The notes: generated by a model not told the origin, from the sequence alone. A stretch of 64,000 nt of DNA from Candidatus Poribacteria bacterium (GCA_026706025.1 JAPOZO010000088.1:35669-99668), one strand, 5' to 3'. Positions 7,137 through 16,620 are shown, counted from the stretch's first letter. Numbers and translations: made by a program.

Positions 7137-7928
7137 TTATACACCTGCGGCGAAGCCACCGTCAACGAGGAGAGAGGCACCCGTAATCCATTCTCCGTCG
7201 TCGGAAGCGAGGAAGACACAGGCACGTCCAATGTCTCTCGGCAGACCGAACCGCGGTAATGCAGTTTTTTCGAGTGCTTCATTGATCTGTTCTGGCGTGA
7301 GGTAGTCCTGAATTGCTGTTTCAATATAACCCGGACAGATGGCGTTGACAGTTATGCCGAATTGTCCGATTTCTAACGCTGTATCTCTGACCATGTTGAC
7401 GACAGCGGCTTTCGCTGGCGCATACGCAGGACCTGCACCACCGCCATAAGCGTGAACAGAGGCGATCTGGATGATTCTGCCAAATTTTGACTGTTTCAGA
7501 TGCGGGATTGCGAGTTTCGTCGCGACGAAAACGCCACGGAGATTAACACCAACGACTTGATCCCAATCGGCGATTGAGATATCCTGCGCGCCACCGGGGA
7601 TGTGGATACCGGCATTATTGACGAGAATGTCAAGTCCACCGAAGTGTTCGACGGTCTGCTGTATCGCCTCAGCGACTTGTGATGCGTCAGCGACATCAGT
7701 CTGAACGAATATCCCTTGTGCACCGAGTTTTTCGATTTCCGTGACGGTGGGTGTCGTTACATCGGTTTCATGATATTTGCCGCGGAGGGGTGCTTTCTGC
7801 TTATCTATAACGGCGACACGTGCACCCTCACGGGCGAATTCAAGTGCGATACCGCGCCCGATGCCTGAACTCCCACCAGTTACAATGCAGATGCGATCCT
7901 TGAGTAGCATGAGTATCTTTCTCTCCAA
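7137..7928 (-). CDS. SDR-family oxidoreductase (3-oxoacyl-ACP reductase-like)
   Basis: TGGSSGIGRGIA, NNAGI, and YAPAKAAV motifs. Confidence 0.85.
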   Translation of the reverse strand: MERKILMLLKDRICIVTGGSSGIGRGIALEFAREGARVAVIDKQKAPLRGKYHETDVTTPTVTEIEKLGAQGIFVQTDVADASQVAEAIQQTVEHFGGLDILVNNAGIHIPGGAQDISIADWDQVVGVNLRGVFVATKLAIPHLKQSKFGRIIQIASVHAYGGGAGPAYAPAKAAVVNMVRDTALEIGQFGITVNAICPGYIETAIQDYLTPEQINEALEKTALPRFGLPRDIGRACVFLASDDGEWITGASLLVDGGFAAGV

Positions 7929-7943
7929 AGCAAACGGACAGCG

Positions 7944-8270
7944 CTACGTAACAAAAACTCGCTGGTAGTTGGCTGTTTTGTCTGAAGGCTTAATATGAAT
8001 TTCAACCTTGCGGTTCAGTCTCTTGAGAATCATTAGCAACCGCTCCACGGTGAAATTAAAATCCATTTCCTTCAGGCGGGACACATCAGACGGATCGAGT
8101 CCAAAGCGTGCTTCTGCTTTTGCCGGGGTTAGTTTTTGCTCCTCAAGAAGATGATAGATTGCGAAGGCGAGGTCTACCCTTAATTGTTCGTATTCCGCTT
8201 CTTCCTCAGAGAAACCGATGTCCAAAAACACATTCCCAGAACTCTCCTCAATTTTGATTTCTTCACTCAT
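7944..8270 (-). CDS. higA: HTH XRE-family antitoxin (HigA-like)
   Basis: A small HTH protein (NVFLDIGF...LTPAKAEARFGLDPSDVSRL) encoded downstream of the Gp49-like toxin gene and overlapping it by 8 nt. Confidence 0.65.
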   Translation of the reverse strand: MSEEIKIEESSGNVFLDIGFSEEEAEYEQLRVDLAFAIYHLLEEQKLTPAKAEARFGLDPSDVSRLKEMDFNFTVERLLMILKRLNRKVEIHIKPSDKTANYQRVFVT

Positions 8271-8619
8271 TTTTCCCCTCCATCTCTTGCACTATTCTCA
8301 GGCGTTGTTTAATCAGGTCAATTTCTCTTTTGGGCGTGCTGATACCACGAGTAGATTTCTTCTGAAATACATGAAGTACATAGATGTTCTCGCCAATCTT
8401 AACAGTATAAACCGCACGGTAGGTGTTCGTATCGTAACGAGCGACAATCTCAAATACACCTGAACCTACTCCTATCAGAGGTTTGGCATTCCGATGTTTA
8501 CCTCCAATTTGAGCAATACGTAATGCCTCACCTACTGCATCTCGTGCGGGTTTGGGAAAACGCCGTACCCGGTCACGAGAATCTCCAACCCACCTCACAT
8601 CTTTCATCGATTGATCCAA
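8263..8619 (-). CDS. higB: Gp49-like (HigB-type RelE/ParE superfamily) toxin
   Basis: Pattern W.GDS...FP...........GVFE...Y..TYRAVY......IYVLHVFQKKS, characteristic of phage Gp49-like toxins. The toxin gene comes first, as in higBA. Confidence 0.65.
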   Translation of the reverse strand: MDQSMKDVRWVGDSRDRVRRFPKPARDAVGEALRIAQIGGKHRNAKPLIGVGSGVFEIVARYDTNTYRAVYTVKIGENIYVLHVFQKKSTRGISTPKREIDLIKQRLRIVQEMEGKNE

Positions 8620-8820: not shown

Positions 8821-11800
8821 CTAAAAATAAGACCTACCGAGTGAATTCCCGGCACCGAATGCGTTGTAAGGTGTCCCCGCAGGTAATGTGCGGATGCCCC
8901 ACGTTTCCGTCGTTGCGTCATAACCGACACCCATCGAAACCGCAGGTTCTTGGATGAGGTTCACCTGGAACGTGAAGTCTTGACGGACATTGTCGTAAGG
9001 CGGCTCTCGTTTAATACCGATTCGACTCCAAGAAATTCGGAGATTCCAATCGTGTAGGTTACGTGTCATACTTAAACGTTGTTGATAAAATTGCCCATCA
9101 ATCGGATAATAGATGAGACTGGCATTAAATTCGAGGTTCCGGCTCAAACGGTAACGCCCAGTAGCCGTGATAGACCGCGAAGCACGTCTTGCGGTATGTC
9201 TCTTGCTAAAAGAACTCCCGATACTGACATTCCAAGACTGTCGGGTGTAACGGATGTTGGAACGGAATCCGACCATCTTGAACTGTTTTCCGTCATCTGG
9301 ATGCGGGTTCGGATCGTGTGTAAAACGGAATGTCATGTTAAGGTTTCGACTCGGCAGCGGGACGATTGTAAAATCGCTCTCAATAGGTTCAAACTGACGC
9401 TCATCTAAGGGATCAAATTCTGTGAAATCCGCGGTAAGGCGTGTATCAAAATAGAGGATCCGATGTGGCGATTGGCTCCGCCGAGTTTTGATCTCAATAC
9501 CTGTGTTAAAACTATAGGTAAGACGTTTTCGCTCATAGAAATAGGTGCTGGGACCGAACGGATAGAGGTTCTCATCTCTGTCAACAGCAGGTTGATAATC
9601 GTAACGGAGTGAGGACTGAATCTCGTGCCGTAATTTCCGTAGTCCCGGGACAAAACCGACGTTGTAGATGCGGAAGAGCGTATTTGTAGCCGATCCGTTA
9701 AAACTGAAAACGCTCCGAAAAATGTTCTTGTTTTCATCCTGGTCTCGGTCGTGCCAAACCGTATTTGAGTTGAGGTTAAGGCTCAGCTGCAACTCTCGTA
9801 AAGGCGTAATCAGAAGTGTTGATTGTTTGCGGACATCAAAACCGAGGTCCATTGTTTTCAGGAATACATCTCTCTCTTCCTCACCATCTTTATTCCGAAA
9901 AACCTCCCTAAAGAAGTTGCCGAGTTCAATATCAAGGTCAACACTTGTGCTTTCAAGCGTTGGAAACGAGAGCATTGAGAGGAACGGTTTCTCTGTTTCA
10001 AATTTTTCAGCAACCGTTAACATGCTGTCGTTGAGCGTCTCGAAGAGAGGGAACGCGCTGAGGCGCATCCGTGAAAAATTCACGGTTAATCGAGGAAGTT
10101 TCTGTAACGACCTCGTACCTTCACCCGTGAAATCGTGGATGTGCCGGATTTCCAGTCTACTTGTGATATCGCCAATAGTCTCTCGTGAGAACTTCAGATT
10201 TCCATTTGCATCAAGGTCTTCGAGATCAAAGGTTGATAAACCCGTCCCATAAGTAAGAATTGCAAAAGAGTTGAGTGTAGATTGCGCCGGGAGCTCGTAT
10301 TCTTCCTTATAACTCTGGGATCGAAGTTCCGTCCTGCCAGTGAAACTAATCGGCCTTCTACCTTCTTGACGGTTATCCCATGGCGTATAGATGGAATGTG
10401 TATGCGCCCATCGCGCAATTAGGTTGTTACCGGTTCGGACGGCACTCTGTCGTTGTCCAGAATAAACATCTTTAGCGTAGATATAGAAGTCGCCGCGATA
10501 GGTCCGCTTTCTATCGACTTTGATGAGCCGGAAAGATTTCTTGGTTTGAATAGGTCGTCTCCCCAAGTCGCCAGCATACAAACTCTGTGCTTCCGAGGCT
10601 ACCGGACTCGGGTCTTCCCACCGTCCACGGAATCCGTGTTTTCGATAGATTTTAAGTTCTTCTTCACCTTCTGCGTCCTCTCCTGCGTCCTCTTCTGCGT
10701 CTTCTCCTATGTCTCCTTCGGCAGTTAAGTTTTCTGCGTCCTCTCCTGTGTCTCCTTCGGTGATTAAGTCTTCAGGATCAGTTCCGTTTTGATTAGGAAC
10801 TGCACCGTCCTGCGTGTCCACCTCCACTTCGTTCTGCTCGGCACTCTGTGCGCTATCACCATCATCCGTTTCGTTCTGCTCAACATTCTGTCCATCATCC
10901 ATACCAGTGGTCTCAGCCTCTTGAACAGGAGCCTCGTCAGTGGGAGCAGTATCAGTTTCTTGTAGCTGAATATCCTCAGTAGTATCTTGCGGTGTTTTAT
11001 CCGTTTCAGTTCCTTCTTCAGTCTCTTCAGGTGCAGGATTCATTACGTCTTCGTAAAACGTCTCCCATTCCGCCTCAAATTCCGCTGCGATCACTTCAAA
11101 GGTAGGTGTCTCCTCTTTTCTGATTAATTGGAAGATATAGAGACCTTCAGGCATAGTAATAGGTCGGCGTTCAATAACATCCCCCGGTTTCTCTAAACGT
11201 CTAACAGAGGATTGCCAAGAAGACTCCATCTCGTTTAGTGGCAGTCCTTTGCCTTCATTAACTTCGGAGAGTGCCGGTTGCGCTACATCAGCAAAATCAT
11301 CGGAAAGACTCTCCATCATGTCCGAGGATATTTGCACGAGTTGTTCAAAGGGTTCACCTTCGTGGGCGCGTTGGAGCATATCATCCGCTAATACGCGTAG
11401 CGCGTCCTTTGTATCACCGCTGGCGGTAATAGCGATATCAATACGGCGGAGTTTAACCTCACGTTCACCATAGACATCAACAATCTGATCGGCTTTGAGG
11501 ATGTGAAATGCGGATTCGGTTTGGACGATAGCACTAATTTCGCCTTCTGGTAATGTGAAGGCAGCTGCTTCCAAAGTGGGATCAAGTATCGGTTCACCGT
11601 CCTCGTCGGTTTCGCCGAGGGCAAGGAAACCGAGGTCGCCGCCCTCATAACGGGTATCCGAGTGGTCAGAACTACGCTGCGCGAGTTCCGCAAAGTCTGC
11701 GTCTTCTTCTTGAAGCTGCTTGAGAAGTTCTTCCGCCTGCTCTCTGGCACGGGCAATATCGGCATCCGTAATTTTATATTCCAGAAAAATCTGCTTCAAC

Positions 11801-13005
11801 CAATAGCGATCATATTCACCATCAAGCCGGTCCTGCAATTCTTGGGCTTTTTCCTGTAACTTGGTCCGTTGATTAGGGGTTACATCCGGCGGAATCGGGA
11901 TGTAAATTTCTTGGAACTTTGTATCCGAGAATCGATACTTGCCTTCAAAGCCGTAGCCTTGTCCGCGTCGCGCGCTTCTATCATAAAGCAGTGCCCCATC
12001 ATAACGCCGTTTCCGGGCAATAGGCTGGATAATACTGAGGTAAGGGCCTTGATAACTATCTGTCCCAATTTTGACGATAATCTTGGCTACTTTTCCTTTA
12101 CGGAGATCACGTCGAATCGCGGGGAAATAGAAGAGCGGAAATCCACCAATACGCAAAACGATGTTTTTCGCGATCAACTCCTGATTCATTCGGACAATGA
12201 CTTCGGTGACGCTGAAATAGTAGTGTGGGTGTTTCAGTGAACAGGTGGTCAACGTCGCGCCTCGGATATAGGAGCGATCCTCCTCTATTTTAAAGATTTC
12301 ACTCCCGCCGAAGTACCACGGGTCGCTATATGTGAAGCCGTTGCGTGCAATCCCTTTTTTGTTTTCAAGATTGAAGATGAGTTCATCGGAGTAGGTCTCT
12401 TCATTGCCGACCTTGAGATGAACGTTCCCTGATGCCCGCAACAGATTCTCGTCGAAATCCGCCCAGACATTATCCGCCCGCAAGATGACATCTTCAAATT
12501 TGATGAGAGCATTCCCGTGAATTTGAACGAAATTATCAACGATAGACATATCGTCGCCATCGCCGATGACCATGCCTTCTTCGGGGACATCAGTTTCCGG
12601 ATTTAACCGTTCCGAACCACCTTCTTCTTCCTCTTGTGCCGGTTCCGCTTCGGCATCGGGTGGCTCTGCCTCAGCAGCAGGTGGCTCAGCGGGTTGCGCG
12701 TCGCCTTCTTCGGCGGTATCAGTCTCAGGATCCAACTGTTCTGAACCATTCTCTTCCGCTTCGGCATCGGGTGGCTCTGTCTCAGCAGCAGGTGGCTCAG
12801 CGGGTTGTGCGTCTTGCGCTATAACCGATTGCATTGGGGAAAAGAGATATGCAATGACGAATACGACTGCCGCTATGCACACACACTTCAGCATGAAAAC
12901 GAGCAAGGTGCGTATTCGCGACGGCGGGTTTGTTTCACAAAGGGACACTGCGTTTGCATATTGATGCTGGTGATGGATAGGCAAATCGGAACCGCTCTTT
13001 CTCAC
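8821..13005 (-). CDS. lptD: LptD (OstA) LPS-assembly outer-membrane protein homologue with an inserted SurA-like parvulin PPIase module and acidic tandem repeats. The probable true start is near 12894 (MLKCVCIAAVVF... signal peptide).
   Basis: The N-terminal segment TTCSLKHPHYYFSVTEVIVRMN...IGGFPLFYFPAIRRD aligns with the E. coli LptD jellyroll (TTCEPGHNHWSVVGSEII...VGPVPIFYSPYLQLP). The internal segment DFAELAQRSSDHSDTRYEGGDLGFLALGE...SAFHILK is a parvulin signature. The C-terminal half (about 700 aa) is beta-rich and barrel-like. Confidence 0.8.
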   Translation of the reverse strand: MRKSGSDLPIHHQHQYANAVSLCETNPPSRIRTLLVFMLKCVCIAAVVFVIAYLFSPMQSVIAQDAQPAEPPAAETEPPDAEAEENGSEQLDPETDTAEEGDAQPAEPPAAEAEPPDAEAEPAQEEEEGGSERLNPETDVPEEGMVIGDGDDMSIVDNFVQIHGNALIKFEDVILRADNVWADFDENLLRASGNVHLKVGNEETYSDELIFNLENKKGIARNGFTYSDPWYFGGSEIFKIEEDRSYIRGATLTTCSLKHPHYYFSVTEVIVRMNQELIAKNIVLRIGGFPLFYFPAIRRDLRKGKVAKIIVKIGTDSYQGPYLSIIQPIARKRRYDGALLYDRSARRGQGYGFEGKYRFSDTKFQEIYIPIPPDVTPNQRTKLQEKAQELQDRLDGEYDRYWLKQIFLEYKITDADIARAREQAEELLKQLQEEDADFAELAQRSSDHSDTRYEGGDLGFLALGETDEDGEPILDPTLEAAAFTLPEGEISAIVQTESAFHILKADQIVDVYGEREVKLRRIDIAITASGDTKDALRVLADDMLQRAHEGEPFEQLVQISSDMMESLSDDFADVAQPALSEVNEGKGLPLNEMESSWQSSVRRLEKPGDVIERRPITMPEGLYIFQLIRKEETPTFEVIAAEFEAEWETFYEDVMNPAPEETEEGTETDKTPQDTTEDIQLQETDTAPTDEAPVQEAETTGMDDGQNVEQNETDDGDSAQSAEQNEVEVDTQDGAVPNQNGTDPEDLITEGDTGEDAENLTAEGDIGEDAEEDAGEDAEGEEELKIYRKHGFRGRWEDPSPVASEAQSLYAGDLGRRPIQTKKSFRLIKVDRKRTYRGDFYIYAKDVYSGQRQSAVRTGNNLIARWAHTHSIYTPWDNRQEGRRPISFTGRTELRSQSYKEEYELPAQSTLNSFAILTYGTGLSTFDLEDLDANGNLKFSRETIGDITSRLEIRHIHDFTGEGTRSLQKLPRLTVNFSRMRLSAFPLFETLNDSMLTVAEKFETEKPFLSMLSFPTLESTSVDLDIELGNFFREVFRNKDGEEERDVFLKTMDLGFDVRKQSTLLITPLRELQLSLNLNSNTVWHDRDQDENKNIFRSVFSFNGSATNTLFRIYNVGFVPGLRKLRHEIQSSLRYDYQPAVDRDENLYPFGPSTYFYERKRLTYSFNTGIEIKTRRSQSPHRILYFDTRLTADFTEFDPLDERQFEPIESDFTIVPLPSRNLNMTFRFTHDPNPHPDDGKQFKMVGFRSNIRYTRQSWNVSIGSSFSKRHTARRASRSITATGRYRLSRNLEFNASLIYYPIDGQFYQQRLSMTRNLHDWNLRISWSRIGIKREPPYDNVRQDFTFQVNLIQEPAVSMGVGYDATTETWGIRTLPAGTPYNAFGAGNSLGRSYF
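12600..12830. repeat. About 120-bp tandem duplication inside the lptD 5' region, encoding the acidic repeat DAQPAEPPAAE(T/A)EPPDAEAE
   Basis: Near-identical DNA blocks are visible at 12600-12700 and 12720-12830. Confidence 0.6.
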
Positions 13006-13012
13006 AGGTTTC

Positions 13013-14305
13013 TTACTCTTTCAGATTAATTTTAATGTAGGCGTTTTCAAGCAGTTTGTCAGTATATGCGTCCCATTCTTCCTGAAATCGCTGTTGACGG
13101 AGTATTACGGTAATCTGTGCCTTCTCCGCTTCAGCCAGACCGGGACTATCTCGTTCGTCAACTCTGAAGATATGGAGTCCAAGTTCAGTTTCATAGGGTT
13201 GGCTGTAGGCACCGGAAACCAGCGGTTCAACGACTTCTCGCGTTTTAGGATTGAGCTCCGATAAGGATCTTATCCCAAGATCTCCACCGTTTTCACGTGT
13301 TTCACCATCATCAGAATGTGCCAATGCGAGTTTACTAAAATCTTCACCAGCTTCCAATTTTGCGTAAACTGCGTCAGCGCGCTTGCGCGTTTCTTGTATA
13401 GCCGATGGGCTTGCAACCAAGGGGACAATGAAATACCGAAATTCAATCATCTCGTCAGTTTTCTTTTCAACGGTAAATATATAGAGGCCTCTGTCGCCTT
13501 CAATAGGTTCACTGAGCGCACCTACCGCCAAATTTGTGAGTGAATCCTGAAATATCTTCGGAAATTCACTGAGCTCTTCGGTAGACGCTTTTACGAGACT
13601 GCCTGCCTGCTGAGAGGTATCATTACGTTGTGCTACCTCCTCAAACGTCGCTTTTCCTGTTTCGATTTCATTCAGTGCTTTTTTCACGTTTTCATAAGCG
13701 GCATCGCGATCGGCTTGGTTGGGTTTAAAGGCGATAAAAATGTGTCTTAAATGGACTTTGTCTGTTTTGGTTGATAATTGGTCCCGATTCTCTTCAAAGA
13801 ATTCTTGGATTTCGCTGTCGCGTATCTGTAGCCTGGGGACAATTCTACCCATAACGAGTTTCTCTGTTTTGAGGTTCCGCTCTGATTGTTCACGAAATGC
13901 CGCGAGTGTCATCCCCTCTCGGTTCAGCTGTCTCTCAAATTCCGCGTCGGTCTCGATTTGGTATTTGTCTTTAAAGTCTTTGATGTACTGCTCAACCTCT
14001 GTATCACCGACAGTAATCCTTAATGTCAACGCTGCTTCCAAAAGTAGCATTTGCCGGATAAGTCTGTCCAACAATTCGGAGCGTTGTCGTTCAGCCTCAT
14101 TGAGTGCTTCGCGCTCACTAAAGCGATAAACTTGCTGGAGTTCCATGGCACGTTGGTTCACTAAGACATCAAGCTCGCGTTTGGTGACAATGTCGTCGTT
14201 GACATAAGCGACAATTCTATCAAATGTACGAGCATAAACGCTTGAGATACCACCGCTGATAAGAAAAACGATCAACGTAAGATAGACACCTTTTTTGTAC
14301 AGCAT
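13013..14305 (-). CDS. surA: SurA-family periplasmic chaperone / peptidyl-prolyl isomerase
   Basis: Signal peptide, SurA-like N-domain, one degenerate parvulin, and one canonical parvulin (HSDDGETRENGGDLG...LGLHIFRV). Confidence 0.7.
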   Translation of the reverse strand: MLYKKGVYLTLIVFLISGGISSVYARTFDRIVAYVNDDIVTKRELDVLVNQRAMELQQVYRFSEREALNEAERQRSELLDRLIRQMLLLEAALTLRITVGDTEVEQYIKDFKDKYQIETDAEFERQLNREGMTLAAFREQSERNLKTEKLVMGRIVPRLQIRDSEIQEFFEENRDQLSTKTDKVHLRHIFIAFKPNQADRDAAYENVKKALNEIETGKATFEEVAQRNDTSQQAGSLVKASTEELSEFPKIFQDSLTNLAVGALSEPIEGDRGLYIFTVEKKTDEMIEFRYFIVPLVASPSAIQETRKRADAVYAKLEAGEDFSKLALAHSDDGETRENGGDLGIRSLSELNPKTREVVEPLVSGAYSQPYETELGLHIFRVDERDSPGLAEAEKAQITVILRQQRFQEEWDAYTDKLLENAYIKINLKE

Positions 14306-14469: not shown

Positions 14470-15516
14470 CTATTCTTCTGGTTCTGTCGCCGCGGGTGAT
14501 TCCTCTGATTCCGATTCTGCAGCCGGTTCTTCGGGTGCTGCCTCTGGAATCCGGTCAATATAGGTTTTGACCTCGGCACGTTCGCGGAGTTTGCTGACCC
14601 ATTCCGTCATAAGGGCTTCGCGCTTTTCACGGTCAGCCTTTCTCACCACACTCTTGTGGACATCCTCGTCCTCAAAGGGTTTTTGGTATTCATCGCGAGC
14701 CTCATCCTTACGGAACATCATGAAGTATTTCTGACCTTGGACTTCGACTGCAATAACGTCATCGTGGACTTGACCGATCTCTGCAGAGAACGCTGCATCT
14801 AAGAAAGGTTCGGTTCCCGACGGATAAGAATCACGACTGAAGTAGTCGGTATCACCAGGAGAGGATGCATTCGCGCCAGGCCCGACGAGTTCGCCTCGGT
14901 CAGAGAGTTCTTGTGCGGCCTCGGCAATGTCTTTACCGCCTTTGATTTCTGCGGAAACTTCATCAGCCCGTTCCTTATTTATGAGGGTGATACACAAAAG
15001 CTTGACTTGCGCCGGACGGACGTATTCCGCTTTGTGCGCTTCATAGTACGCCATATAATCAGCGTCAGACAAGGTGAGCTTATCGTCAACTTCTTGGGTG
15101 GTAATTCTCTTAACCATCAACTCGTGAAGATAGTCCTGAACCTTCTTGAGAATTTCCGGGTCTTCGTTGAGCTTATGGTCGCGAGCGAGATTGAGAATTA
15201 AGCGGCTCTCCGCCATAAGGAGCATGTAAGTCTCCAACCCCTCTTTGTCCGCATACTGCCGCTGTTTGTATTCTGGCAGTTCGCTAATCTCCTGCATCAT
15301 TTCCTCAAGGGTGATGCGCTGTTTACCGTTCCACTCAAATTCAGCAATAACTGTTCCGTCGCCCCAACTATAAAAGACGGGATGTGTAGCAAGAATCCCG
15401 AGTAAAAGTAAAGGGACGACCGGCAGTCGAAGCTGGCAATCTATTCTACCCATGGATTGGGTAATTCTTGTGAGCATTTTCAATTCTAAACTCCTTTTCT
15501 TATCGCTATCAACCAT
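14470..15516 (-). CDS. SurA/PpiD-like periplasmic chaperone paralog with a degenerate parvulin and an acidic C-tail
   Basis: SurA N-domain-like region plus a single degenerate parvulin-like segment. It is a paralog of the gene at 15652..16620. Confidence 0.5.
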   Translation of the reverse strand: MVDSDKKRSLELKMLTRITQSMGRIDCQLRLPVVPLLLLGILATHPVFYSWGDGTVIAEFEWNGKQRITLEEMMQEISELPEYKQRQYADKEGLETYMLLMAESRLILNLARDHKLNEDPEILKKVQDYLHELMVKRITTQEVDDKLTLSDADYMAYYEAHKAEYVRPAQVKLLCITLINKERADEVSAEIKGGKDIAEAAQELSDRGELVGPGANASSPGDTDYFSRDSYPSGTEPFLDAAFSAEIGQVHDDVIAVEVQGQKYFMMFRKDEARDEYQKPFEDEDVHKSVVRKADREKREALMTEWVSKLRERAEVKTYIDRIPEAAPEEPAAESESEESPAATEPEE

Positions 15517-15651: not shown

Positions 15652-16620
15652 CTACTGTTCTGACTCCTCGGTCTCCGCTTCTTCGGGTTGCGGTGGCGTT
15701 GGAATATTCTCAGGATAGGTTTTCAACTTACCTTTTTCAGAAATCTCGTTGACCCATGCATTGATACGCTCGCGTTTCTTTGTACGCTCAATCGTTCTTT
15801 CGACGTTGCTTTTGACCTCGTCAAATTCCTGCTGGCGTTCGGGTTGATGCTCCTCTTTACGGAAGATAAGGTAAAAGGTTTCGTCGTTGACATCAGTTTC
15901 AAAGACTGCATCTGTCATTTCGCCGACTTCTTGCGCGAAAACAGCCTCAATGAATTCCGACCAGCGCGCTGAAGCAGCTTTTGTGAAGAAGTTGGTATTA
16001 CCCGGATCATCTTCGTTAACACCGGGTCCGTTGGCGAATTTCCCTGCTTCAGCGAGTTCTTTCGCCATATCAACGATGTCTTTTCCTGCTTTAATAGCAT
16101 CAAGCGTCTCGTTGGCGAGGTCCTCATCATCAAGCGTGATGCAGGTTGCGCGAACTTTTGCTTCCTCAACGTACTCACCGAGATTTTCCTGATAATATGC
16201 CATAAGGTCGTCAGTCGTATAGACCACCTTGGCATCAACTTCCATCTCGGTTAATTTTTCAACCATGAGTTGGTGCGTGTAGTCTTCGAGTTTCTTGACG
16301 TGTTCTGAGAGTTTATCAAACCCCTCGTCAGTCGCCCGGAGGATTTTGAGCCGTTCCTCTATCAACTCTCCAAGATATTCGGCTTTATCGGCTCGACTCT
16401 CATAGTTCTGTTGGCGGTAAATAGGAAGTTCTGCGATAGCGGCGTTCAGGTCCGCCAACGAAATTTGGTGTGTGTCGCCGTTCCACTTGTACGCTGCCAC
16501 AATCACCTGGCTCTCGTCCATAACGGGAGCTGGCTCCTCATGACTATCCGATTGGACGAACTTCCAAGTCAATAGGCAGGTCATGGCGACAACTACAAAA
16601 ATAGTAATCGTTCTTTTCAT
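15652..16620 (-). CDS. SurA/PpiD-like periplasmic chaperone paralog with a degenerate parvulin and an acidic C-tail
   Basis: Signal peptide. Its architecture and local sequence are similar to the gene at 14470..15516. Confidence 0.5.
   Translation of the reverse strand: MKRTITIFVVVAMTCLLTWKFVQSDSHEEPAPVMDESQVIVAAYKWNGDTHQISLADLNAAIAELPIYRQQNYESRADKAEYLGELIEERLKILRATDEGFDKLSEHVKKLEDYTHQLMVEKLTEMEVDAKVVYTTDDLMAYYQENLGEYVEEAKVRATCITLDDEDLANETLDAIKAGKDIVDMAKELAEAGKFANGPGVNEDDPGNTNFFTKAASARWSEFIEAVFAQEVGEMTDAVFETDVNDETFYLIFRKEEHQPERQQEFDEVKSNVERTIERTKKRERINAWVNEISEKGKLKTYPENIPTPPQPEEAETEESEQ

Follow-up and report, generated by a model that had tools for sequence, protein, structure and literature searches.

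A single continuous reading frame of 1394 aa was found at 8821..13005 on the minus strand of the window, the 64,000-nucleotide stretch of Candidatus Poribacteria DNA that was analysed. The sequence-only reading had proposed one real gene here that joins an LptD homologue to PPIase-type parvulin domains, and this was supported. The GTG start is supported by an N-terminal M[KR]K..LP..H.HH segment common to the homologues P0098 and P0112. The gene was also said to sit beside surA, which it does, and the two genes, separated by 7 nt, are probably co-transcribed. The features of the gene and its upstream neighbours are as follows.

8821..13005, minus strand: whole coding sequence, predicted LptD with a nested parvulin array, 1394 aa (GTG start 7 nt past the surA stop codon)
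12817..13005, minus strand: residues 1-63, long n-region and hydrophobic signal peptide (…CVCIAAVVFVIAYLFSPMQSVIA/QD, the slash marking the inferred cleavage site; sequence reading)
12574..12816, minus strand: residues 64-144, acidic Pro/Ala-rich low-complexity block with an imperfect tandem duplication (37% D+E)
12106..12573, minus strand: residues 145-300, LptA/OstA-type β-jellyroll with the invariant Cys255 (TTCSL)
11920..12105, minus strand: residues 301-362, barrel strands b1-b4, b2 having the equivalent of E. coli Pro246 (hhalign, phmmer, AF2 DSSP, alignment)
11815..11919, minus strand: residues 363-397, opening strand and helix of the split parvulin P3, the strand continuous with b4 (AF2 DSSP, splice test)
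11470..11814, minus strand: residues 398-512, canonical parvulin P1 with GGDLG and FHILK motifs (Pfam Rotamase, alignment with PDB PrsA 2jzv)
11110..11469, minus strand: residues 513-632, degenerate parvulin P2 with Arg and Tyr at the two His positions (weak Rotamase_3 match, AF2)
11026..11109, minus strand: residues 633-660, P3 resumes with helix TPTFEVIAAEF (AF2 DSSP, splice test; T-P-x-F invariant in the family)
10669..11025, minus strand: residues 661-779, second acidic low-complexity block, inside P3 (37% D+E)
10501..10668, minus strand: residues 780-835, C-terminal part of P3, RKHGFRG in place of GGDLG (AF2 DSSP, splice test)
8956..10500, minus strand: residues 836-1350, barrel strands b5-b26
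8824..8955, minus strand: residues 1351-1394, conserved aromatic-rich C-terminal tail ending in GRSYF (column conservation, identity to P0123)
13013..14305, minus strand: canonical surA with SurA_N and two parvulin (Rotamase) domains (NCBIfam SurA over residues 18-426 of 430)
14470..15516 and 15652..16620, minus strand: two Rotamase_2-only parvulin proteins of the PpiD/PrsA type (domain scans)

The three genes directly upstream had been read as SurA family members. All three contain parvulin domains, but only one is SurA, the others being of the PpiD/PrsA type. In related loci surA adjoins the lptD-parvulin gene in 81/83 cases, and the two Rotamase_2-only genes are kept in 79/83. The order mfd, two ppiD-like genes, surA and the lptD-parvulin gene is conserved in 79-81/83 loci, including those of relatives with ∼30% identity. 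E. coli lptD also adjoins surA.

The protein has the N-terminal periplasmic OstA/LptA-type jellyroll of an LptD together with a large LptD-type C-terminal barrel, read as 26-stranded. The jellyroll proposed from the sequence is borne out by a match to NCBIfam LptD PRK04423 over residues 149-372 (E=3.8e-6) and by hhalign against residues 69-269 of E. coli LptD (Prob 89%), an alignment that covers the TTC.../PLFYFPA matches quoted earlier and stops at the end of b3. Pfam LptD_N did not match the 1394-aa protein. AF2 DSSP gave four strands, b1-b4, over residues 301-362, a region that phmmer aligned with Neisseria LptD 7omm. The C-terminus, correctly taken as barrel-like, matched Pfam LptD_2 with 24.3 bits, just over the 22.5-bit cut-off; hhalign of the barrel alone against E. 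coli LptD was uninformative. A barrel-only phmmer search of 1.84 billion representatives returned fused relatives and unfused proteins and nothing else. Four unfused relatives were scanned, with matches to LptD_2 in 4/4, LptD in 3/4 and LptD_N in 2/4. All of the top 9 Foldseek matches were LptD. The C-terminal tail exceeds the barrel both in column conservation in the sponge clade (0.94) and in identity to P0123 (61%); its AF2 pLDDT is <50.

The interdomain disulfide that joins the jellyroll to the b24/b25 turn (E. coli C173-C725) is absent. The mature protein has a single Cys, Cys255, and the barrel Cys position is Asp1319. At the C725 equivalent the sponge clade has Asp, whereas the distant clade and unfused LptD_2 proteins retain Cys. 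The Cys pair occurs in 23/61 relatives, those of the distant clade, as well as in unfused LptD_2 proteins. The disulfide is a feature of well-studied LptDs and not necessarily of the whole family. Among the 28 window ORFs scanned with Pfam, a set that includes 8821..13005 but not ∼20 further ORFs ≥200 aa located at 35-64 kb, no other Lpt-related gene was found. As judged by homology, a role as LPS translocon is the most likely one for this protein.

The parvulin array is an insertion of ∼470 aa (residues 363-835) after barrel strand b4. The sequence-only reading had recognized an inserted parvulin module. It had given the module ∼250 aa, missing a third, split parvulin, and had placed it between jellyroll and barrel; its actual place is inside the barrel sequence, in the turn that joins b4 to b5. 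P3 is the outermost fold, and P1 and P2 are nested in the loop joining its first two helices. A Rotamase match had been expected in residues ∼380-520; the Pfam HMM matched P1 at residues 409-506 with E=9e-22 and 78.3 bits, well above the 21.7-bit cut-off. The second, degenerate parvulin segment suspected from the sequence corresponds to P2 (∼513-632), which has a parvulin-like order of secondary structure in AF2 and is intact in the homologue P0123.

P3 was recovered by a splice test, in which residues 363-396 were joined to the C-terminal part of P3, restoring full-length coverage of the Rotamase HMM. P0123 P3 scored 64.5 bits when spliced compared with 45.7 bits for the C-terminal part alone. 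Spliced P3 scored 69.6 bits in P0130 and 20.4 bits, slightly under the cut-off, in the window protein. P2 and P3 are clearly intact in both P0123 and P0130. AF2 DSSP shows an unbroken strand at residues 350-370 followed by a helix at 377-394, and the last strand of P3 (SFRLIKV) is continuous with b5 as an unbroken strand at 824-848. Both AF2 models agree on the nesting order, with a pLDDT of 80-90 in the array. Conservation in the parvulins equals or exceeds that in the barrel (against P0130, P1 is 45% identical and the barrel 27%). A fourth, circularly permuted parvulin is present in the distant clade, in what is read as the b10/b11 turn. The strands between it and the array are even in number, so it should lie on the same side of the membrane.

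None of the three domains has the canonical active site of two His and a Cys/Asp. The corresponding P1 residues are Q405, H448 and H501, His448 occupying the Cys/Asp position. Gln replaces the first His of the pair in 59/61 sequences, and His501 is found in 48/61. P3 has Tyr and Arg at the pair, which is thus missing from both P2 and P3. Since the first His of P1 is replaced and the pair is missing from the other two domains, the array may work mainly through peptide binding or folding rather than catalysis.

Both acidic blocks noted in the sequence-only reading are present. The N-terminal block is 38-105 aa long across the sponge clade. Its duplication had been described as an exact tandem repeat of ∼120 bp, which is incorrect. 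The copies, at 12574-12702 and 12703-12813, share a 60-nt part that is 97% identical and a 54-nt part that is 78% identical; these parts are spaced 111 and 129 nt apart, hence an 18-nt difference in length between the copies. Tandem Repeats Finder did not detect the N-terminal duplication. The second block contains 39-nt repeats at 10691-10773. In the sponge clade its length is 97-179 aa, compared with ∼10 aa in most other relatives, and a disordered stretch of ∼120 residues splits P3 further in sponge symbionts.

Unusual length and low-complexity blocks are the only hints that an lptD and a parvulin gene were fused by misassembly or frameshift; positive evidence for such an artefact was not found. 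Barrel strands flank the insertion on both sides, and the uninterrupted ORF is shared by 364 homologues (protein clusters), the best 120 of which are all nearly full-length. A search of genome loci found the full-length ORF in at least 154 species-level genomes. The best 80 of these loci are all from Candidatus Poribacteria, many of them closed 5-7 Mb chromosomes. With the low-complexity blocks removed from the query, the locus in OZ241378.1 was 99% identical across it; the full-length product, P0001, is 96% identical to the window protein. Relatives carrying the array also come from non-sponge metagenomes. Conservation at full length across Poribacteria, closed chromosomes included, refutes the chimera that had been raised earlier, and we regard the chance of an artefact as negligible.

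We infer from strand counting and alignment only where the array lies with respect to barrel lumen and jellyroll, and that it is on the periplasmic side. AF2 DSSP gave 4 strands before the array and 22 after it, a total of 26. When the array is deleted the sequence is collinear with unfused LptD_2 proteins and with E. coli LptD; the junction coincides with a short turn from b4 to b5, after which comes the RW..H motif of b6. The two AF2 models are of moderate confidence (mean pLDDT 72.8 and 69), falling below 50 in the second half of the jellyroll and b1. Surface exposure would follow if the phmmer alignment with Neisseria LptD, which continues through FQEIYIPIPPD against b5 TDLTWLPHD, were correct. 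The array would then lie past a fifth strand in extracellular loop L3, perhaps with a role in interaction with the sponge host. Two further points would fit this placement: the presumed periplasmic turns of the N-terminal barrel half are unusually long (12, 23 and 38 aa under the strand numbering chosen), and the acidic disordered block occurs specifically in sponge symbionts. However, the FQEIYIPIPPD segment and the next helix complete the parvulin HMM, with a gain of ∼19 bits in P0123, and both AF2 models extend b4 through it to pair with the last strand of P3. The collinearity with unfused LptDs at b4/b5 and the count of 26 strands also speak against exposure, as do turn and loop lengths in the C-terminal half, which fit the parity, and the array in non-sponge relatives. 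Transfer of ∼470 folded residues across the outer membrane seems unlikely as well. We consider a surface location very improbable. We consider it very likely both that the gene encodes the LptD of Poribacteria, the LPS-inserting pore of the outer membrane, and that the array has the topology described.

LptD is a classic, strongly SurA-dependent substrate (PMC3747590). The best overall explanation, to which we give a probability of about 60%, is an LptD whose b4/b5 parvulin array aids its own assembly. From the domain architecture, an LPS translocon with a tethered peptide-binding module of this kind is the most likely form of the protein. The array would hang in the periplasm below the N-terminal lobe of the barrel, beside the jellyroll. 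By folding ahead of the barrel, the soluble parvulins would set b4 and b5 in register and keep hold of barrel segments that are still unfolded, helping SurA and BAM to assemble the very large, slow-folding LptD barrel. Taken by itself, the cis-assembly role is tentative. A domain inside a barrel turn might hinder folding rather than help it. Nor is a cis chaperone obviously needed when neighboring genes encode a free SurA and two more parvulin proteins. With a canonical surA still encoded 7 nt upstream, the suggestion that the module stands in for SurA was not supported.

Instead of serving the folding of LptD, the array could be a tethered hub acting in trans, which binds other unfolded OMPs, free SurA or BAM and concentrates protein insertion beside LPS insertion. 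We think this unlikely. Any such partner is putative, P2 and P3 are degenerate, and there is no core chaperone domain of SurA or PpiD. LptD is normally a low-abundance protein, which would limit any general chaperone capacity. Somewhat more doubtful is a wider role as an integral working part of the translocon, in which the array would substitute in cis for LptE, for the LptM/disulfide lock or for the hand-off from SurA to BAM, or would couple Lpt to BAM. If true, the LPS exporter of Poribacteria would be assembled on a different principle. Still less probable is a purely structural replacement for LptD accessories, the array acting as a brace between jellyroll and barrel in place of disulfides or as an LptE-like plug or template. 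Rigid continuity of P3 with b4 and b5 near the jellyroll exit in AF2, the lone Cys255 with Asp at the C725 position in the sponge clade, and the usher plug domain as precedent in an inter-strand turn are in its favor. LptE is, as far as is known, hard to find outside Proteobacteria. Against this, the distant clade carries both Cys pair and parvulins, which indicates that the array predates the loss of the disulfide, and the continuous strands suggest that P3 lies below the rim and not in the lumen.

LptD is essential, a drug target and the best-known strongly SurA-dependent substrate. The reason for this dependence, and what parvulin domains contribute, are still debated. Evolution has run an experiment on this question in the form of a phylum-wide LptD that carries three parvulins in one turn of its barrel and, in a sister clade, a fourth. 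The protein provides natural constructs for asking whether tethered parvulins speed or stabilize barrel assembly. It is also a rare instance of nested and circularly permuted folded domains in the turns of an outer-membrane barrel. No description of an LptD-parvulin fusion was found in the searchable literature, and within that scope the earlier judgement that the architecture is undescribed holds. Family members are labeled only "peptidylprolyl isomerase" or "hypothetical" in databases. Surveys of Poribacteria envelope genes would miss LptD because of such annotation.

Proteobacterial LptDs (E. coli, Shigella, Klebsiella; 4q35, 4rhb, 5iv9) have in common with the Poribacteria protein the LptA-like jellyroll, the TTC… and P(L/I)FY.P motifs, b1-b3 with the b2 proline, a barrel read as 26 strands, a periplasmic C-terminal tail and adjacency to surA. 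The Poribacteria protein differs by its ∼470-aa nested array in the b4/b5 turn and, in the window protein, by two acidic disordered blocks and a mature chain with one Cys, in which no interdomain disulfide is possible. The order surA then lptD is reversed relative to E. coli. The closest unfused sequences by phmmer, P0141, P0144, P0145 and P0149, belong to the LptD_2 family (Pfam PF19838). They share an RDLH.W motif near the C-terminus and collinearity at the b4/b5 junction, but have a turn of 2-5 residues in place of the array. They keep the jellyroll-barrel Cys pair, and some have extra OstA-like N-terminal domains instead.

The label "SurA-like" given to the module in the sequence-only reading is not appropriate. 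SurA (E. coli, 1m5y) consists of an N-core, P1, P2 and a C-terminal tail, whereas the array has neither SurA_N nor the C-terminal helix of the core chaperone module. SurA_N, SurA_N_2 and SurA_N_3 gave no match at E≤1 in the 1394-aa protein, while the upstream gene matched all three; NCBIfam SurA matched only the parvulin part (E=0.0019). P1 is closest by sequence to the parvulin domains of PrsA (2jzv, E=5e-11, compared with E=7e-4 for SurA 1m5y). Unlike in SurA, the domain that houses the nested folds is itself a parvulin, and the array belongs to the same covalent chain as an outer-membrane barrel. PpiD (8zht) is a precedent for a membrane-tethered, non-catalytic parvulin beside a translocon. 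PrsA and PpiD are anchored in the cytoplasmic membrane and have dedicated N- and C-terminal chaperone domains, whereas a barrel turn tethers the array to the outer membrane. The usher barrels PapC and FimD carry a folded plug domain inserted between two strands of a large outer-membrane barrel, but the usher plug is lumenal and unrelated to the array in fold and pathway.

The uninterrupted ORF at 8821..13005 (minus strand) encodes a 1394-aa LptD homologue. It is matched by two NCBIfam models: LptD (PRK04423) at residues 149-372 and CT351, a chlamydial LptD family, at residues 155-362. In the Pfam scan, LptD_2 was matched at residues 1024-1148 (24.3 bits vs a cut-off of 22.5) and no LptD_N/OstA match was found. 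Using hhalign, residues 69-269 of E. coli LptD were aligned with the family profile over the jellyroll and strands b1-b3 (Prob 89%), taking in the TTC… and PLFYFP motifs and the proline of b2. The barrel after the insertion gave Prob 0.2% against E. coli LptD alone. A barrel-only phmmer query (residues 831-1394) against 1.84 billion representatives returned 35 proteins in all, and the long ones bear Rotamase (Pfam parvulin) domains. Four unfused relatives were scanned (P0141, P0144, P0145 and P0149); LptD_2 was found in 4/4, LptD in 3/4 and LptD_N in 2/4. An AF2 model of the protein was built without its two acidic blocks (mean pLDDT 72.8, pTM 0.55), and its best nine Foldseek matches in the PDB were LptD, with E down to 8e-11. 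The sequence-only reading, which had called this protein an LptD homologue, is thus borne out by profile and structure matches alike.

A nested array of parvulin folds is placed in the b4/b5 turn of this protein. The sequence-only reading had staked its parvulin on residues ~380-520, and Rotamase was matched strongly there, at residues 409-506 (E=9e-22). DSSP of the AF2 model gave four strands past the jellyroll (310-316, 320-328, 336-344 and 350-370), the fourth of which extends unbroken through FQEIYIP, with a helix after it. Another 22 strands were assigned after the parvulin region, the last being FTFQVN (1344-1349), which makes 26 as in LptD. The first of these opens with a parvulin's final strand, SFRLIKV, and passes directly into the barrel. 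Residues 363-396, a strand and a helix, resemble the opening strand and helix of a parvulin whose remainder lies in residues 633-835. When both pieces of this split fold (P3) were spliced, the Rotamase HMM was covered full-length again. In the homologue P0123 the score rose from 45.7 bits for the C-terminal piece to 64.5 bits for spliced P3, which scored 69.6 bits in the more distant P0130 and 20.4 bits in the window protein, where the copy is degenerate. Since the splice restores coverage, the module consists of three nested parvulin folds in the order P3a, P1, P2, P3b. The canonical P1 and degenerate P2 had been recognized from the sequence; their placement between jellyroll and barrel has to be corrected to the b4/b5 turn, and the third, split fold added. 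A second AF2 model (P0123, 1173 aa) has the same domain order with array pLDDT of 80-90; its barrel seam is poorly resolved, worse than in the window model, and it yields no independent strand count.

An error joining lptD to a parvulin gene, which had been raised as a possible artefact, can be dismissed with near certainty. Barrel strands flank the parvulin module on both sides, a layout that a two-gene join cannot give. A search with the full-length protein gave 364 homologues at E<=1e-5. Among the 120 listed, identity is 68-96%, almost every one is full-length, and the named entries are Candidatus Poribacteria, many on contigs of 2-11 Mb. Scanning a single genome for each species gave 154 loci; the best 80 were Poribacteria MAGs without exception, and dozens were closed 5-7 Mb chromosomes. 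One of these chromosomes, OZ241378.1, showed 99% identity over a query from which the low-complexity blocks were left out, and P0001, its product at full length, shares 96% identity with the window protein.

Ahead of the signal peptide's hydrophobic core, the N-terminus carries an n-region that is rich in His and of unusual length, M[KR]KS..LP..H.HH… (residues 1-37; window 12895-13005, minus strand). As two homologues, P0098 and P0112, have it too, a GTG start at 13005 is favoured over the ATG at 12894. The two acidic low-complexity blocks reported from the sequence were both located, as follows.

Residues 64-144: N-terminal acidic block, 37% D+E with one basic residue
Residues 661-779: second acidic block, 37% D+E with one basic residue
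12574-12702 and 12703-12813: the copies of a tandem duplication in the N-terminal acidic block

The duplication had been described as exact and ~120 bp long. It is present but not exact; one part is 97% identical between copies and another 78%, and the spacings of these parts, 111 and 129 nt, imply an 18-nt difference in copy length. It was detected by a repeat search and missed by Tandem Repeats Finder. The second block lies inside P3 and measures 97-179 aa in sponge symbionts and ~10 aa in most other relatives. Within it are 39-nt tandem repeats (10691-10773; 2.1 copies, 84% matches), which fit a change in block length among close relatives, over that same 97-179 aa, by repeat expansion and contraction.

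The array is probably periplasmic, as the jellyroll is periplasmic and four strands precede the array. A surface-exposed array is improbable. It would follow from phmmer, which carries the Neisseria LptD alignment through FQEIYIPIPPD against b5 and so puts the array in extracellular loop L3, but this segment is part of the parvulin HMM. Moreover, once the array is deleted, the fused proteins line up collinearly with E. coli LptD and the unfused LptD_2 proteins; the join coincides exactly with the b4/b5 turn of 2-5 residues, and b5 and the RW..H motif of b6 come next. The total of 4 + 22 = 26 strands also speaks against exposure, and in the C-terminal half the lengths of turns and loops agree with that parity. 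The L3 placement was rejected on the HMM splice test, the collinear alignment and the strand count.

The array is kept in deeper relatives with barrel identity of 28-46%. All three parvulins are intact in P0123, and the P0130 clade has four Rotamase matches. The parvulins are conserved on par with the barrel; identity to P0130 is 45% for P1 vs 27% for the barrel. Conservation does not extend to the canonical dual-His site: 59/61 P1 sequences carry Gln in place of the first His, His or Asp occupies the Cys/Asp position of P1, and neither His is present in P2 or P3. This favours a binding or structural role over a catalytic one. By BLAST against the neighbouring genes, P1 is 32% identical to SurA's own P2 domain (E=2e-9), which is suggestive of an array derived from the adjacent surA and not enough to claim it.

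The fourth parvulin was found at residues ~795-905 of P0130, in a turn read as b10/b11; this distant clade has another relative, P0198, at locus L081. The domain is circularly permuted, starting at the second helix, with strand 1 and helix 1 placed last, and once re-permuted it scored 76 bits over HMM positions 2-96. As b10/b11 is an even number of strands from b4/b5, it would lie on the same side of the membrane. At the corresponding turn the window protein has a helical segment of 38 aa (residues ~982-1019).

Cys255 of the jellyroll, in TTCSL (window 12241-12243), is shared by 61/61 relatives. Its barrel partner is probably the equivalent of E. coli C725 (motif H-C-W), a position that is Cys in the distant clade and the unfused LptD_2 proteins and Asp in the sponge clade and P0123 (Asp1319 in the window protein; 9049-9051). 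The mature window protein has a single conserved Cys, unpaired. Past b26, the C-terminal tail (…SMGVGYDATTETWGIRTLPAGTPYNAFGAGNSLGRSYF; residues 1351-1394, window 8824-8955, minus strand) is aromatic-rich and conserved above barrel level, with AF2 pLDDT <50. The tail of unfused LptD_2 relatives is about 22 aa shorter. It could be a parvulin ligand or an extended beta-signal.

The LptD gene starts 7 nt past a canonical surA (NCBIfam SurA spans residues 18-426 of the 430-aa product), upstream of which are two Rotamase_2-only proteins and mfd. The block mfd, two ppiD-like genes, surA and the LptD-parvulin gene is kept in 79-81 of 83 related loci, including non-sponge metagenome relatives at ~30% identity. 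Three SurA-family genes had been reported upstream; there are three parvulin genes, but only one is a canonical surA. The label 'SurA-like' for the inserted module is too specific, as the Pfam scan of the window protein found no SurA core domain. Replacement of SurA by the cis array was rejected on that ground and on the full SurA encoded 7 nt upstream (81/83 loci). A promoter and terminator scan gave nothing usable on operon boundaries. A toxin-antitoxin pair follows the LptD gene.

8263..8619, minus strand: Gp49/HigB-like toxin, directly downstream of the LptD gene, with an antitoxin
7944..8270, minus strand: HTH_37 antitoxin

The toxin is present in 13/83 related loci and the antitoxin in 26/83, often elsewhere in the flank, and the usual downstream neighbour is an SDR gene (7137..7928); the pair looks like a variable, mobile insertion. 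Immediately upstream of mfd and in its orientation (20296-21791, minus strand) are genes for a DUF3108 protein and for one weakly resembling DUF5683. Farther away is an 825-aa leucine-rich-repeat protein (25367-27844, minus strand) with eukaryote-like repeats and a weak N-terminal metallopeptidase-like match. Eukaryote-like repeat proteins are common in sponge symbionts.

We tentatively propose, with a probability of roughly 0.35, that folding starts with the soluble parvulins, in the periplasm, that P3 staples the b4/b5 hairpin into register, and that the array holds unfolded barrel segments, aiding SurA- and BAM-dependent assembly. Stapling would follow from the terminal strands of P3, which run on into b4 and b5. 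An array acting in trans as a chaperone, or as a BAM-docking hub, seems unlikely, and a structural brace or plug in place of LptE or of the lost interdomain disulfide more unlikely still.

The architecture was new to the author of the sequence-only reading, and a full-text literature search on LptD-parvulin/PPIase fusions, Poribacteria LptD or envelope, and LptE distribution likewise found no description of it, nor any of Poribacteria LptD. Public names of the LptD-parvulin proteins are 'peptidylprolyl isomerase' or 'hypothetical protein'. In E. coli, lptD likewise adjoins surA, and LptD is the textbook example of a strongly SurA-dependent substrate (PMC3747590).
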